The position numbers were made by a program, and so were the translations under genes. Shown here one piece after another: positions 7,004 to 59,925 of a stretch of 64,000 nt of DNA; position 1 is the stretch's first letter, and every line of letters begins with the position of its first letter. A model generated the notes under the pieces. It was not told where the DNA came from, made no database searches, and saw only the letters and a list, made by a program, of their open reading frames with translations. Source of the stretch: Escherichia coli (lineage in GTDB: Bacteria; Pseudomonadota; Gammaproteobacteria; Enterobacterales; Enterobacteriaceae); the NCBI RefSeq assembly GCF_030013595.1, contig NZ_CP122768.1; one strand, given 5' to 3'.

Positions 7004-7531
7004 TCATTGATGGCCTGATTTTTCCCACTCAGCCAGGGCGTTTAGTCCGGCTTCACTCCAGTTATCCAGCTCATCGGGACAATCACCTGCAACATAGCAG
7101 AGCTCACAACGCAGCATACGAATTGCCAGCCTGGCATTTTCCCGAAAATCATACTGCTCAAAGTAATATTGCCCAGCATAATCCTCAAGGCAGATAGCAC
7201 CATCATCAAGAAATTGCACTTCACAGCATAGTTCCCCGGCTGCATCCTGTACACGCTGCTGTATGTCATTGTCCGTTACTGGTGCAGGGATTTTACCGTC
7301 TCTGGCCTTAACTGCTTTCCAGAACTCGCCCCACGTCATTTCCAGCGTTCTCTCTGGCCACATTTCAGAAACGGTATCTTTTCCCTGTGCTGGTGGGCTG
7401 TTCCGCTGCTCTGTCGCTTCCACATCGATTTTTTTACCGGACATGACCACTTCGCCTTTCTCGATCCAGTCGTAAACTGTCTGGCGGCTTACGCCTTTGT
7501 GTTTGGCATATTCTGCCTTGCTCATAAACAT
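7004..7531 (-). CDS. Terminase small subunit-like protein (Nu1-type N-terminal HTH); candidate packaging-redirection protein (Rpp-like)
   Basis: N-terminus KAEYAKHKGVSRQTVYDWIEKG resembles lambda Nu1 HTH; no large terminase or capsid gene in element. Confidence 0.55.
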   Translation of the reverse strand: MFMSKAEYAKHKGVSRQTVYDWIEKGEVVMSGKKIDVEATEQRNSPPAQGKDTVSEMWPERTLEMTWGEFWKAVKARDGKIPAPVTDNDIQQRVQDAAGELCCEVQFLDDGAICLEDYAGQYYFEQYDFRENARLAIRMLRCELCYVAGDCPDELDNWSEAGLNALAEWEKSGHQ

Positions 7532-16509: not shown

Positions 16510-16543
16510 AAAAGCCCGTTAATCAGTAAATTAACGGGCTTTC
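16510..16543 (-). terminator. Hairpin AGCCCGTTAAT-loop-ATTAACGGGCT with T-run on minus strand
   Basis: 11-bp stem; on the minus strand followed by TTTTTTGTTGTTTT. Confidence 0.4.
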
Positions 16544-16710: not shown

Positions 16711-16819
16711 AACTCAAAATCAGACGCCAGAACAAATATTCTGGCGTCTCAGAGAAAAGAATCTTATTAATTCCCTGTTACTTTATAACTTCTTAATCAC
16801 TTCATTGATGGTATTTTAT

Positions 16820-17661: not shown

Positions 17662-17820
17662 TAATCCGAACACTGTCTGTTGTTCACTTTTTCAGGCGTC
17701 AGGCCCCCTTTCTGATGATGAAGCCTGACGCCATATTACCGGAGATATGACAGAGTGAAGATCAATATCACTCCCCTGTTAAAAGATTCTTGTCGTCTCA
17801 GGTAAAATACATGATTAATA

Positions 17821-18705
17821 TCAATCATGTATTTTTACAGCAAGACAACCACGAACAAACTCAGGATTAAAATGTTTTACCGATTCCCCAACATAACCCA
17901 AATCAAGCGAACTAATTTGCGCCATTTCTTTCTCTGTCAGTGAGAAATCCCAAATAGCAAAATTTTCTTCGATACGCTGTTGATGTGTCGATTTCGGAAT
18001 AACGACCACTCCCCGTTGAATATTCCAACGCAGAATGACTTGAGAAATCGATTTTTGATGGGCATCTGCAATACTCTGAAGCAGATTATTTTCAAAGGGT
18101 TTATGTCGTCCACCACCTAACGGAGCCCATGCTTCAGGCTGCACGATATAATACTTCATGGTTGCCAGCGCCTCTGGTTGGGCAAAATAGGGATGCAACT
18201 CGACCTGGTTGACCATCGGTTTAACTCTTACCGTTTCACAAAAGTTCGCCAGAACATGAGGATAGAAATTGGAAACCCCAATCGCTTTTAATTTGCCCTC
18301 TTCATAGGCATCTTCGAGTGCACGCCACGCACTGAAATAATCGCGCATAGCCTGGTGCAATAAATAGAGGTCGAAGTATTCTAGTCCCGATTTTTTTAAT
18401 GACGCTTCAATACCTGCTTTTGCCGTATCCTGATTCAACATATCCTGCACCCACAATTTAGACGTTATAAATAACTCTTCTCGGGTACATAAACCTTCAG
18501 ATATGGCTTCACGAACGGCTTCACCGACGGCATCTTCATTACCGTATACCGCTGCAGTGTCGATGAGTCGATAACCCGTGCGGATAGCATTCAGCACTGA
18601 CTGTTTGCACACGTCTTTATCGGTAACCTGAAAAACACCAAATCCCATCATCGGCATTTTCAGATTGTTACTTAATACGGAAAATTCCACTGTCAGTCCC
18701 TCCAT
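17821..18705 (-). CDS. Aldo-keto reductase (294 aa)
   Basis: AKR signatures ([27 protein letters not shown]). Confidence 0.8.
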   Translation of the reverse strand: MEGLTVEFSVLSNNLKMPMMGFGVFQVTDKDVCKQSVLNAIRTGYRLIDTAAVYGNEDAVGEAVREAISEGLCTREELFITSKLWVQDMLNQDTAKAGIEASLKKSGLEYFDLYLLHQAMRDYFSAWRALEDAYEEGKLKAIGVSNFYPHVLANFCETVRVKPMVNQVELHPYFAQPEALATMKYYIVQPEAWAPLGGGRHKPFENNLLQSIADAHQKSISQVILRWNIQRGVVVIPKSTHQQRIEENFAIWDFSLTEKEMAQISSLDLGYVGESVKHFNPEFVRGCLAVKIHD

Positions 18706-19845: not shown

Positions 19846-19890
19846 AATAAATAATGGCGTTGAAGATGTCAACGCCATTATTGTTTATTA
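19846..19890. terminator. Bidirectional terminator hairpin (TAATGGCGTTGA / TCAACGCCATTA) between convergent ykgA and eaeH
   Basis: 12-bp perfect stem with T-run. Confidence 0.6.
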
Positions 19891-24169: not shown

Positions 24170-24720
24170 TGAGATAATTTCCTGATGAACGAATTAACGA
24201 ACATAGGCAGACACAAATAGTGGCGTCTGCTTGTCAGAAAAACCGGGGATTTCCCGGTTTCCTTTTCCGCAGAAAAGGAAATACCTTTATGTAAGAAAGT
24301 ACACCGCCACCTAATATATCCAGTGTCTGTAGCCACTCATCAGGTGGTTGGGCGCGGGATTATATTTTTATTTATGGGTTAAAAATTTAGCTTTTTGTGC
24401 AAGTTATTAAATAGATACTTAAGTTATATTTCTTACTCTGCGGGCAGTGAATAATTCATTATTAAGAGTGAATAATAATGACCTGTCTTTAATTAATCGC
24501 TATTGGGAATACGTCGAAGTAGGTATATACACCAGGATAAACCAATATATTTTTTATGGATATTCATTTTCCTTCATCAGACTGTGAATTGCAGGGATAT
24601 CGAACTTGCACGACTCATCGCAACACTTAAGCAGATTTATGAATTTCGTTCATAACCCCTGACAAATCCTGCCGTCTAATCGAGCTTTTCCCTTTACGTT
24701 ATGCTTCTCATGAACGATAA

Positions 24721-38025: not shown

Positions 38026-38059
38026 CTATAATCGCGGGGCTTCGTTTTTCAGGGATAAC
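38026..38059 (+). terminator. Terminator after ykgJ (GCCCCGC ... GCGGGGC + T-run)
   Basis: Stem-loop with TTCGTTTTT. Confidence 0.55.
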
Positions 38060-38241
38060 AAAACCCGAAACTTCTTCCATCTGCCAGCAACAATGCCTCT
38101 TCCTCTATAGTGTTCTCCGGATCTACAGCATCCTGAAGTAGCGCGATGTACTCATTGGCTATCTGCATCAGAAAGTTAAAAACAATGTTTTTAACCTATA
38201 AAAATGGCGCTTTATTTGCGCCATTTTTATCATTCAATGCA

Positions 38242-54849: not shown

Positions 54850-55525
54850 CGATCTGACATTTGCATTCAACTTCGTTACTTACGGCCCGTAAACGGGCTG
54901 CCCGGATATGGAATCGATAACTGCTCCCCCATTTTATCCTCTTCAAGCTGGTGCTTTATGTAGTCCTGTATCTTCGCCGTGTTCTTACCCACCGTATCGA
55001 CATAGTACCCTCGGCACCAGAACTCCCTGTTTCTGTATTTGAATTTCAAATCCCCAAACTGCTCGTAAAGCATCAGACTGCTTTTCCCTTTCAGATATCC
55101 CATAAAGCCGGATACGCTCATTTTGGGTGGGATTTCCACAAGCATATGGATATGATCTGCGCAGCACTCTGCTTCCAGAATCCGTACGCTTTTCCACTCA
55201 CACAGCTTTCTCAAAATACTGCCTATCGCCCTACGCTTCTCTCCGTAAAACGCCAGTCTTCGGTATTTCGGCGCAAAAACTATGTGATATTTACAGTTCC
55301 AGCGGGTGTGCGCTAAGCTCTTTTCGTCCCCCATTGGGACCCCCTTTTGATTTCTTGTTTGACACTTGCAGTTGCCAGACCGCAAGGTGTTTTAACAAAT
55401 CAAAAGGGGTTTTAATAACTGGCTCAAAGCTGAAAGCTTTCCGGAACCCCCAGCCTAGCTGGGGGTTTTCTGTGCACAAAAAGCCGCGTCTCCCGGAGAA
55501 GACGCGGCCTGATGGGTGAAATGAA
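54850..55525. mobile_element. IS200/IS605-family insertion sequence (approximate ends)
   Basis: Y1/HUH transposase ORF flanked by structured ends; hairpins at 55340-55520. Confidence 0.65.
54876..55334 (-). CDS. tnpA: IS200-type transposase TnpA (about 152 aa)
   Basis: HUH motif HIHMLVEIPP and catalytic Tyr region YYVDTVG. Confidence 0.8.
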   Translation of the reverse strand: MGDEKSLAHTRWNCKYHIVFAPKYRRLAFYGEKRRAIGSILRKLCEWKSVRILEAECCADHIHMLVEIPPKMSVSGFMGYLKGKSSLMLYEQFGDLKFKYRNREFWCRGYYVDTVGKNTAKIQDYIKHQLEEDKMGEQLSIPYPGSPFTGRK

Positions 55526-55530
55526 GACGT

Positions 55531-55800
55531 TTATTGCCTGAGAATTCCCTCACTGGCGAGATACGGATTTAGCTGTTTTCCGGCATCAGGTTCAAAATTC
55601 CAGTACCGCCAGCGCAACTGACCTTCAGCATTACGGATAACCAGCCGGAAATGCGTTCCCTGGTCATCTTCAATAAGCACATTGCGGTAAGCTGTTGTGA
55701 CGGCAACCGCCTGTTCGCGTGAGAAAGGGCCTTCGGGTAATAAACGTGATGTACAACCCGGCATATCTGTTGCTCCCTGAAAGTAAAAGGCCCCGGTCAT
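55531..55800 (-). CDS. Hypothetical small protein (89 aa) downstream of Ag43
   Basis: ORF only. Confidence 0.4.
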
Positions 55801-55834
55801 GATGACCGGGGCCTGAAGGGGAGTGACCTGATTA

Positions 55835-58681
55835 TCAGAAAGTCACATTCAGCGTGGCCTGACCGTTATAACCTTCAGCGCTGCTGCCGCTGACGCTGTG
55901 GGCATAACCGGCCTGAACGCCCAGGGTGATATTTTCCCGGACACGGGCTTCCAGTCCGGCCTGCAGGTCCAGTGACGTGCCATTCTGGGATGGTGAGAAC
56001 GTCATGTTACTGCCGGCTGCGGCTGTACCCATGCTCATGTCACCCCGGGAGCTGAAGGTGCGGATAACAGAAGGCTGTACCCACCAGTTCACCGGCAGTT
56101 CACGCACACTGTGTTTTGCACTGTCGCGCAGGGTGTCACGGGATGAGGTGCCTTCACCAAAGGTCATATCGTTGTGGCTGCCCAGACGGAAACCGGCACG
56201 CACATGTTGTGCACTGCCATGCCCGAACTTCACATAACCGGCGTTATCCTGGCCGTCATCCAGGGAAAGTCCCTGCCAGGTATACTGCAGTTGTGGCTCC
56301 AGCATCAGGTTGTCAGTGATACTGAAGGGCAGACCGGTTTCCAGTGAGCCCAGCCAGCCCCAGCCCCGGGCGCGGAAGTCGTTATTGTCCGATGACGCTT
56401 TCATGCTGTGGCGGGTTCCCTGTGCCACAATGTCAGCCCACAGGCCGGAGGACGTGTGTGTCAGATTCAGGTATCCGCCCAGGCTGCCGGCATCATCCCG
56501 GACCGTGCCGGCACGGGAGCCGTCATCATCCTTAACATCAACGGAAGAATGGCCTGCAGCGCCATATACCCCCGTGGTCACAGACATACCGGCAACCTCT
56601 GTTCTCAGCAGGTCACCCTCCAGACGGACGAAGCCATAGCTGCCGCTGCTTTCCGGCGTGGCCCCACGGGCAATACCGCCGTTGTTATCGTGACCGAGAT
56701 GACCGCCCTGAATGCTGAGACGGACGCTGTTATTTTCACCGTTTACACCGGTCTGATGGCTGCGGGAGCCTGCCAGAATCCGGTCATAGTCCATTGCCTG
56801 TGTCAGCATGGAGGCATACAGGGGGACTTCAGCACGATAAGCATTTTCACTGCGCAGGTACCAGTCTTCATCGCTGTCACGGTTCAGGGTGTAGTTAAAG
56901 ACACCGGCCTGAAGCGGGCGACTCAGGGCAAACGCACCTTCTTCTGTGGTGGCACCATTCTGTGCATCCACAACCCGGATACCCTGTCCGGAGGTTGCCA
57001 CCCCGAGGTTACTGTTTCCGACATTTGTGAACGCAAGCCAGGTTTTGCCGGTTGCCTGACCACCATTAATCACCAGCTGGTCAGGGGCATTGCTGCCATC
57101 AAGGCGAACACGCATATTGATGGTGCCACCCTGACCGGTGAGGTTACTGGTGGTCAGTTTATGGAACGTTACCGGGGCGTCGCCTTTTGCAACAGCACGG
57201 CTCAGGACGGCATCCTGTGTCGTCTGATTATCAAAGCGAATCTCCCCTGCGTTAACAATATCGCCGGTACTGACCACATCACCATTCAGTACCATGCTGG
57301 CGCCTTTACTGAGCTGTGTTCTGCCACTCAGACTTCCCCCGGCAGCCAGCATCAGTGTCCCACGATGTCCGACAGTGGTGTTGCTGGCCTGTCCCCCGGC
57401 ATTAACCGTAAAGCTACCGCCATTTTCCAGCAGCAGGCCGCTGGCCTGACCGGATATACCATCAATACTGAACTTACCGCTGGCATTGGTCCCCTCAACA
57501 GTGGCACCACTGTCTGCAATCAGGGCACCACCGGATGTCATGGTGACACCTGTTGCCTTACCACCGGCAGACACTGCCAGGGTACCGCCGTCATCCACCC
57601 GTGTTTTCTGCGCTGAATGGCCCTCCAGTACATCCAGGCGACCGCCGGACTCCAGAACAAGGCCGTCAGCCTTACCGTTTTCCACCGTGAAATTGCCCAG
57701 ACGGTTGCTGCCGGTGACGGTTGCCGCCGTACTGGTGACCAGTGCGCCCCCCTGCTTCAGGGTGACATTCGTGGCTGTACCACCGGCGTTCACCTGCAGC
57801 TTGCCTTTCTGGTTAACGGTGGTGAAATCCGCCAGACCACCTTCCTTGATAATCTGCCAGCCGTCACTGTTTACAACAGTGCCAGACGCCGTACCGCCGT
57901 TGTGCACATACTGGTACCCCCCATTCAGCGTGGTATCCAGTGCGTGACCATGTACAGTCTGGTCGCCGCCGGCATAAACCACAGTGGTATTTACCGTTCC
58001 TTCAGCAGCCACAATCTGACGACCATTTTTATTGATGGTGGTGCGTACGGCATCTCCGTAGACGGTCTGCCCGGTATCACCATTTTCTGCATCCGGTCCC
58101 CCTTCCGCGCCGGTATTCACAACCGTGTCGGTTGCCACTGCGCCGGATTTGACGGCCTGCCAGCCCTTCTCATTAATGACAGTACCCGTTGCAATCCCGC
58201 CTTCATGTACCCACTGCTCACCGCCGTTCAGAGTGGTGTTCACTGCCTGCCCCTGAAGGCTCTGTCCGCCTCCGGCACTGATAACCGTGTCTGAAACGCT
58301 TCCTCCGGCATTCACTCTCTGAAGACCACCACCGGTGACAGTAGTGTTGTTGGCGATACCGCCATTTTGTATCCATTGTCCGCCGGTATTGGCCTCGTTA
58401 TCCGGCCCATACTCCAGACCGGTACTGATGGTCATTCCGTTGGCCGTACCGAAGACAATCTGGTTGTCATGATTTTCCAGTGTTCCGCCGCTCACGGTTT
58501 CTCCCGTCTGTACAACCGTGTCAGCAGCCAGTGCCGGGACTGATGTGACAGCAGCAAGAGACAGCGCAACCGCCACACCGGCGCGTTTTCCCCGTGAGCG
58601 GGCCAGTTCGGAGGTCACCACCAGGGTGCCCGTAATGTGATTCCATACCAGCCTGTAGCTGGTGTTCAGATGTCGTTTCAT
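55835..58681 (-). CDS. flu: Antigen 43 self-associating autotransporter adhesin (about 948 aa; ORF track start 58756)
   Basis: [35 protein letters not shown]... extended signal peptide; repetitive beta-helix passenger; C-terminal beta-barrel. Confidence 0.85.
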
Positions 58682-58898
58682 CAGCTTTTCCTTACAGAGG
58701 GTGAATAAAAAAGCCGGTACCCACAAATATGGGTACCGGCAGGTACAAAACAGCATGGTCAGATAAAGTGGTTTTTCCCGGACATAAATGCTTCTCCTCT
58801 CTCATCCGCCAGAGAAGTATCAGTCCGTTGTGTGCAATTCCGTTCTGCATGATGAAGAGATTCAGCTGCCTTTTCGCAGACCATTAACCACTATAAAC

Positions 58899-58934
58899 GA
58901 TCGATGGTAACGATCGATACATGTTTTATCGATC
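58899..58934. promoter_or_regulatory. Three GATC (Dam) sites at 58899, 58912, 58931 in Ag43 upstream region: OxyR/Dam phase-variation switch
   Basis: cGATCGATggtaacGATCGATacatgttttatcGATCGtttt, 220-250 bp upstream of flu start. Confidence 0.65.
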
Positions 58935-59052
58935 GTTTTATTCTATTAACAGCAAGGCAGTCACGCAAGAGAAAGAGGTGGGTATGAGGTGTTTGTGTCA
59001 TGTTTTCAGTTGGTTAACGCAATGTAATCAGGCATTTCCCCTGGCAGAGTGT

Positions 59053-59925
59053 TCAGAAGAAAATCCAGTTCCATACAGCGCGGGCAACAGAGACCACCGT
59101 GTCACGGACGACACGCAGAACCGTACGAGCCACAGAGGCAATACAGACGCTCTCCGCCGTGTCAAATATCCGGTCCACCGCACCGGTAAACTGTTCACGG
59201 GCCTGCCCCCGGACAGATTCCGTGCACAACTCGTCCTGCAGGCGGGTCATCAGGGGACTGGCGGCATGGTCGGGAAGTGCTGTCATGAGCGCACTGACCA
59301 GCGTATCCAGTTCCCAGCCGGTGCGGGCCGATACGGCCACAACCGGATGTACGGGCCGGAACAGCCGGAATACCGCATCTGTTTTCTCACGAATGTTCTG
59401 TTCCTGTGCGGGAGAAGGCTGAATACCTGCCATATCCCATTCATGGCAGGGCTCCGTTTTGTCGGCCTGCGTCACCACAAACAGCACCTGCTGATGTCCC
59501 CGGTGCAGGATGTGTCGCCAGAAATACTCATCCACAGACAGGGCACGGTCATCGGCTTTAATCAGCCACAGTACCAGGTCAAGTTCAGGCAGAATGTCAC
59601 GGTACAGGGCTTCATACTCTGCATCCCTGTCCCGGCTCTCGCCCACCCCGGGTAGGTCAGTGATAACCATGCTGTGACCATGGCCACTCAGACGGAAGCG
59701 CTGCGCTTCCCGGGTGCCGGCGTGAACATCACTGACCGGGGTGACCTCCCCCTGAAACAGTGCATTACAGAGTGAGGATTTACCGGCCCCGCTTTTCCCC
59801 ATAATGCCAATCACGGGTTCGTGGCTGGTGAGTTTGCGCAGATGTTCCAGGATGTGACGGGAAAGTGAGTAAGGAAGAGAAGAAAGTGGTTTTTCAATTG
59901 CCTCAATGGCATCAGACGGATTCAT
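59053..59925 (-). CDS. YeeP/YkfA-family GTPase (about 290 aa; ORF track start 59964)
   Basis: P-loop GKSGAGKSSLCNALF; DLPG G3 motif. Confidence 0.75.
   Translation of the reverse strand: MNPSDAIEAIEKPLSSLPYSLSRHILEHLRKLTSHEPVIGIMGKSGAGKSSLCNALFQGEVTPVSDVHAGTREAQRFRLSGHGHSMVITDLPGVGESRDRDAEYEALYRDILPELDLVLWLIKADDRALSVDEYFWRHILHRGHQQVLFVVTQADKTEPCHEWDMAGIQPSPAQEQNIREKTDAVFRLFRPVHPVVAVSARTGWELDTLVSALMTALPDHAASPLMTRLQDELCTESVRGQAREQFTGAVDRIFDTAESVCIASVARTVLRVVRDTVVSVARAVWNWIFF

Follow-up and report, generated by a model that had tools for sequence, protein, structure and literature searches.

The region described here is part of a stretch of 64,000 nucleotides of Escherichia coli DNA (contig NZ_CP122768.1), which we refer to as the window. 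Positions 58682-59052 of the window are exactly the intergenic region between an Ag43 gene and a co-oriented gene for a YeeP-like GTPase (Table 1). The ORF downstream of this region matched the NCBIfam model NF033177 with 1986.6 bits (cut-off 1200) over residues 1-948 of 948, and homologous genes in E. coli genomes also bear an Ag43-family annotation. The product of the upstream gene had weak matches to Era/MnmE-type GTPases, and at a locus in strain H8 that is 99.8% identical, the GTPase family protein gene is 873 nt long and ends 372 nt before the Ag43 ATG. A first reading of this DNA had overlooked that the gene and the RNA are on the minus strand, as well as the UUUUUUAUU that follows the leader hairpin and a second inverted repeat, of 11 bp, at 58909-58937.

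Table 1. Features in and around the agn43 control region, listed in the direction of transcription.
Feature	Position in window	Strand	Description
YeeP-like "GTPase family protein" gene	59053-59925	-	From the ORF list; the control region is delimited by its stop codon
Putative sigma-70 promoter of agn43	58940-58968	-	-35 TTGCGT (58968-58963), 17-nt spacer, -10 TAGAAT (58945-58940)
Perfect 11-bp inverted repeat	58909-58937	.	AACGATCGATA-N7-TATCGATCGTT; joins GATC-II and GATC-I
Three-GATC block	58899-58934	-	GATC-I 58931-58934, GATC-II 58912-58915, GATC-III 58899-58902; putative Dam target/OxyR operator by homology
Leader RNA, IsrC (Rfam IS102) homolog, 228 nt	58707-58934	-	From the inferred +1 through the T-run; boundaries mapped from K-12 isrC
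Terminator stem-loop (palindrome of the preliminary description)	58713-58740	-	GCCGGUACCCAU-AUUU-GUGGGUACCGGC; 12 bp, 8 G-C pairs, 4-nt loop
U-tract directly 3' of the stem	58704-58712	-	UUUUUUAUU; invariant in all alleles fetched
Shine-Dalgarno and start codon of Ag43	58679-58693	-	AAGGAA 58693-58688, ATG 58681-58679; from the sequence
Ag43/Cah family autotransporter adhesin gene, 948 aa	55835-58681	-	NCBIfam NF033177 equivalog

Two other elements were observed downstream of the Ag43 gene. The first, at 55788-55814 and approximately 20 nt past the stop codon (55835), is a perfect inverted repeat whose arms are 11 bp or longer, and it is probably the gene's own 3' terminator. Beyond this repeat and a small ORF (55531-55800), a full-length match to the Rfam Hfq-binding RNA STnc490 (146.4 bits; gathering score 56) is located at 55344-55467 on the minus strand, among DUF905/DUF932 island genes.

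The preliminary description of this DNA had reported three GATC sites upstream of Ag43, and reading of both strands from 58400 to 59400 confirmed them on the plus strand at exactly 58899, 58912, and 58931. This triple is the tightest in the 64-kb window, with a span of 32 bp. However, the density of the sites alone proves nothing, as random placement of the 174 GATC sites in 64 kb would be expected to give 0.64 such triples per window, with a probability of at least one of 0.46. The triple is meaningful because it is homologous to that of K-12 flu in its spacing, its CGATCG contexts, and its position right after the TAGAAT. Alignment showed that the spacing of 19 + 13 bp and the CGATCG contexts are equal to those of K-12 flu, and the same spacing is also found in the O157 and O103 alleles. 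A second dense cluster of GATC sites, at 1808-1861, includes a triple with a span of 33 (approximately 1826-1861) and is located in an apparent long open frame, which likewise indicates that GATC density by itself is no mark of a switch.

Upstream of the GATC block, the putative promoter aligns with the TTGTCC-17-TAGAAT of K-12, and the -10 box is invariant in 5 alleles. A consensus promoter scan of the region did not call the agn43 promoter, because the -35 box matches the consensus at only 3 of 6 positions. We infer that the transcription start is the G at 58934, based on the annotation of K-12 isrC, which starts at the G of GATC-I. The inverted repeat that joins GATC-II and GATC-I is imperfect in K-12 and gives the operator of the window a stronger dyad symmetry; in the fold of the leader RNA, it is predicted to form the 5'-terminal hairpin. 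When compared with the 37-nt OxyR consensus, the window operator agreed at 12 of 20 specified positions, a score that 110 other sites in the window match equally, and the K-12 operator agreed at 14 of 20. The putative OxyR site overlapping the GATC sites is proposed on homology to the K-12 operator only. In an allele of agn43 from SCU-101 that is otherwise K-12-like (NZ_CP048920.1, 236-270), GATC-II is replaced by CAATAG, which leaves two GATC sites 32 bp apart.

Dam and OxyR compete at the three GATC sites of agn43 (PMC13337833, PMC4872104, PMC2909390, PMC3764049), and the work on the K-12 switch is that of Henderson & Owen 1999, Haagmans & van der Woude 2000, Waldron 2002, and Wallecha 2002, as cited in PMC2909390 and PMC13337833. 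By homology with K-12, we would expect a similar switch of initiation in the window allele. The sigma-70 promoter (TTGCGT-17-TAGAAT) would start transcription at the G of the first GATC or close to it, and the three GATC sites, within the first 36 bp of the transcribed region, would overlap the OxyR operator. When these sites are unmethylated, OxyR would bind and repress transcription (OFF), and when they are Dam-methylated, OxyR would be excluded (ON); the predicted outcome of this competition is heritable phase variation. The three-GATC Dam/OxyR arrangement proposed previously for this agn43 control region is supported by the full-length Ag43/Cah ORF downstream of it and by the homology of the GATC block to that of K-12 flu.

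The leader of Ag43 belongs to a known RNA family. Rfam RF00124 (IS102) matched positions 58936-58700 on the minus strand over the whole of the model (1-206 of 206), with E = 2e-11 and a score of 72.6 bits, well past the gathering score of 46. This was the single Rfam family in the region, and the match was recovered again in a gathering-score scan of the whole window. Within the match, the leader hairpin aligns to the terminal stem of RF00124 and the U-tract aligns to the 3' tail of the model. In K-12 MG1655 (NC_000913.3), isrC (b4435) is annotated between yeeP and flu. Its first base is the G of GATC-I and its last is the sixth T past the homologous hairpin, with the flu ATG another 27 nt further. 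In the abstract of the 2014 study by Wallecha and colleagues, a Rho-independent terminator is reportedly placed about 28 bp ahead of the main start codon, with a mechanism of antitermination that is not known. This distance is consistent with the 27 nt that we measured in K-12. The synteny of the window is as in K-12, with the IsrC homolog situated between the YeeP-like GTPase gene and Ag43 and on the strand of Ag43. A discrete RNA of approximately 200 nt is known for K-12 isrC only (PMC3175480).

The palindrome that the preliminary description had placed at approximately 58716-58741, with a length of 10 bp, is real, although its coordinates were about 2 bp off and its true perfect length is 11 bp (58713-58740). 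The 10-bp arms lie at 58714-58723 and 58730-58739, and in the RNA form a closing U.G pair extends the stem to 12 bp around a loop of 4 nt. The base of the stem (58713) precedes the ATG (58681) by 31 nt, and not by some 40 bp as had been stated. The terminator scan identified the stem followed without a gap by the tail TTTTTTATT, and called it on the minus strand only; 8 of the 9 residues after the stem are U. The free energy of the hairpin is about -23 to -24.1 kcal/mol (z = -6.15), and none of 200 shuffles folded as well. Counted from the +1 inferred by homology, these elements occupy positions 195-228 of a 253-nt leader. Together, the palindrome and the U-tract are a canonical Rho-independent terminator.

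The window has about nine distinct places with a perfect hairpin whose arms reach 10 bp or more (22 nested counts), versus 0.8 counts in dinucleotide shuffles. One of these (38199-38229, arms of at least 11 bp) is at one end of a full-length match to Rfam IS009 at 38036-38236 on the minus strand (191.5 bits; gathering score 117). Five other perfect hairpins, whose arms measure 10-11 bp or more, are located at 16511-16542, 16722-16749, 17804-17835, 19851-19881, and 24258-24281, which is far above the expectation from shuffles, and these five may be terminators or REP-like elements.

To what extent the leader is shared among E. coli strains differs markedly between its parts. Of 5426 complete E. 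coli genomes, 4118 have a 50-nt terminator module, which occurs at 7262 places with up to 7 per genome, and it was just upstream of an Ag43/Cah gene in every locus fetched. The leader type of the window is also common, with at least 80% of the leader covered in 3445 of the 5426 complete genomes. K-12-type alleles have only the last 64 nt or so of the window leader in common with it. Between the window and K-12, the common elements are the TAGAAT -10 box, the AAAAC spacer, and the three CGATCG GATC sites with their 19/13 spacing, and the rest of the leader is strongly diverged. The Shine-Dalgarno and ATG segment is identical among the fetched alleles, with the exception of the SCU-101-type variants, and the segment from the terminator to the ATG of SCU-101 (L006) is identical in two other loci (L010 and L009).

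Five intact variants of the hairpin were found, which differ only in the loop and in two pairs of the stem, and 60 of 60 cells are paired. Pair 8:21 is C:G in the window, U.G in K-12, O157, and O103, and U:A in the SCU-101 type, and pair 12:17 is either U.G, as in the window, or C:G. Relative to the common variant, the change of U8 to C in the window stem makes a U.G into a C:G pair, and the change of C12 to U makes a C:G into a U.G pair. The exact hairpin of the window was the best match in 54 records only. A formal covariation test on the stem, with only five variants, did not rise above shuffles (405 of 500 reached the observed score).

An exact 21-mer scan for taxonomic spread, which covered one genome per species and would miss diverged copies, had a single match, in a 2.3-kb contig of a metagenome-assembled genome labeled Collinsella. 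This contig (L009) carries an agn43 leader of the SCU-101 type and is probably E. coli contamination, and the scan thus gave no evidence outside E. coli. A different kind of allele was observed in strain PigCaeca_2 (L007, NZ_CP038857.1, 356-445), where unrelated sequence takes the place of the terminator's 5' arm and of all that lies upstream of this arm. The hairpin cannot form there; the allele also has no GATC block, and its annotated Ag43 CDS starts 87 nt upstream, in frame.

Several devices by which read-through of the terminator could be regulated were sought in the leader. No match to the RfaH ops element GGCGGTAGNNTG with two or fewer mismatches was found in the leader (58682-58934), and antitermination by RfaH/ops was rejected on this basis. 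A mini-ORF that has a good Shine-Dalgarno (AGGAG-N8-ATG) and encodes MSGKNHFI followed by a stop was considered as a basis for leader-peptide attenuation and rejected, as the O157 cah leader has ACG in place of its start codon and K-12 lacks the segment. An in-frame upstream ATG at 58756 was not conserved across the leaders compared. A conserved antiterminator helix was also rejected, since folding of the nascent leader up to the terminator loop gave the 5' arm a different partner in each allele type. The element in the window works like an attenuator, and a regulated alternative in the form of an antiterminator helix, a leader peptide, or a factor site was not found in the leader. We consider it unlikely that the terminator is a regulated attenuator whose read-through is set by some factor or by an allele-specific property of the leader. 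In this reading, the widespread long leader of 228 nt, with a center unrelated to that of K-12, may carry a sensing element of its own, or the released IsrC may act in trans. If this were true, alleles would differ in how Ag43 output is tuned in ON-phase cells.

The preliminary description had proposed that the hairpin affects translation as a structure of the 5' UTR. A hairpin that modulates Ag43 translation, through ribosome access or stability, and does not terminate transcription is in our assessment quite improbable. Its position within the 5' leader, at a distance of 31 nt from the AUG, would suit such a role, as would the ability of a stable hairpin to protect processed 5' ends. In addition, in the minimum free energy fold of the read-through RNA, the U-tract pairs weakly with the Shine-Dalgarno region (UUUUUUAU with GUAAGGAA), so that the terminator region could indirectly lower the accessibility of the Shine-Dalgarno. 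However, this pairing is composed of A-U and G.U pairs only and is down to 3 bp in the centroid structure. The stem (58740-58713) pairs with neither the Shine-Dalgarno nor the AUG, both of which are outside it, and an effect on translation does not fit this anatomy, because the hairpin ends 19 unpaired nt before the Shine-Dalgarno. Moreover, a stem with a tail that is 8 of 9 U is the signature of an intrinsic terminator, and the U-tract is present on the sense strand only. The hairpin is also the terminal stem of IS102/IsrC and marks the 3' end of isrC in K-12; a discrete RNA with its 3' end at the hairpin is annotated in K-12 and modeled in Rfam. According to PMC5389530, stabilized flu mRNA was without the IsrC part, which means that the leader is processed off.

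Termination at the hairpin could also serve purposes other than attenuation of Ag43. It could chiefly be an insulator, or terminator, for the upstream YeeP-like GTPase gene that blocks read-through from upstream genes of the island and leaves agn43 to its own phase-variable promoter. The terminator scan found no other terminator-like site between the stop of the GTPase gene (59053) and the agn43 promoter, read-through from upstream would first meet the terminator at 58713-58740, and the two genes are co-oriented and syntenic in thousands of genomes. Yet approximately 340 nt lie between the GTPase stop and the terminator, the agn43 promoter is upstream of the terminator, and the RNA that ends at the terminator begins at the agn43 +1, according to the K-12 isrC annotation. 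An insulator role would add to attenuation of agn43 and not replace it, and as the chief function we regard it as very improbable indeed. We give the same very low credence to IsrC being mainly a trans-acting small RNA, with the hairpin merely its terminator and of no regulatory meaning for Ag43. Both the K-12 annotation and Rfam class IsrC as a small RNA, cyoD has been speculated to be a target based on an IntaRNA prediction (PMC13168525), and repression of IsrC by dCas13a altered lycopene yield (PMC10783499). Against this, IsrC has its promoter and strand in common with agn43, and there is no second promoter in the 25 nt between the terminator and the ATG, such that any expression of Ag43 requires read-through of the terminator. 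Between allele families, the GATC block and the terminator are the only parts retained and the middle of IsrC is poorly conserved, which is the opposite of the pattern of a seed-pairing small RNA. Furthermore, the levels of isrC and flu change together (PMC5811629, PMC13168525).

Based on these considerations, we conclude that positions 58682-59052 are very probably a standard agn43/cah control region that operates at two levels, initiation and elongation, both of which have been described for K-12 flu. The sequence holds nothing at odds with this reading. At the level of elongation, the leader of approximately 250 nt ends in a strong Rho-independent terminator, composed of the palindrome and UUUUUUAUU, 25-31 nt before the ATG. 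Transcripts that stop at the terminator would be the 228-nt IsrC/IS102 RNA, and the Shine-Dalgarno and the Ag43 ORF would be carried by read-through transcripts only, which implies that the hairpin would act on transcription, by attenuation, and not on ribosome access. In our analysis, this conclusion has its basis in the anatomy of the region, its Rfam membership, homology, and the conservation of the stem. That termination and read-through do take place and control flu expression is taken from the literature. Specifically, passages in PMC5389530 and PMC5811629 (citing Wallecha, Oreh, van der Woude, deHaseth 2014, J Bacteriol 196:2728) describe control of flu by termination/antitermination at IsrC, and an entry in a table of PMC5811629 reads "IsrC sRNA (flu gene attenuation)". 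The agn43 control region of the window is thus already known in kind, and the preliminary description was right on the switch and wrong on the role of the hairpin.

These findings have a bearing on annotation and on measurements of agn43 expression. In RefSeq (PGAP), 38 of the 40 genomes listed have no feature under the leader (58682-58945), and in the other two it overlaps only with an extended Ag43 CDS; among the genomes listed, K-12 MG1655 alone has an annotation of the isrC/IS102 RNA. Correct annotation of the window would place the isrC/IS102 ncRNA, the leader terminator, and the Dam/OxyR operator between the GTPase gene and Ag43. With regard to expression, a promoter in the ON phase is insufficient, and transcription also has to pass the strong terminator that lies 25 nt ahead of the ATG.

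The known systems closest to the window region are the K-12 flu switch, the IsrC/IS102 RNA, and classical leader attenuators. Of these, the attenuators of trp, pyrBI, and bgl differ from the window leader, which has no conserved leader peptide, conserved antiterminator helix, or ops/RfaH element, but resemble it in having a strong intrinsic terminator between the promoter and the start codon that has to be read through. The K-12 flu switch differs in its spacers between the GATC sites (AAACATG in the window vs TCTATTT in K-12, and ACC vs TAT) and in its -35 box (TTGCGT in the window, TTGTCC in K-12), and the 11-bp inverted repeat of GATC-I and GATC-II is perfect in the window and imperfect in K-12. 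The two are alike in their three GATC sites with CGATCG contexts, which begin at the inferred +1 directly behind the same TAGAAT, and in being flanked by an Ag43-family gene on the downstream side and a YeeP-like GTPase gene on the upstream side. The window RNA is 228 nt long, whereas IsrC/IS102 (RF00124, b4435) is 195 nt in K-12, and the central 130 nt or so are barely alignable. The two RNAs have in common the 5' start at GATC-I, the 12-bp terminator stem, the UUUUUUAUUCACC tail, and the short gap from the terminator to the Shine-Dalgarno and ATG.
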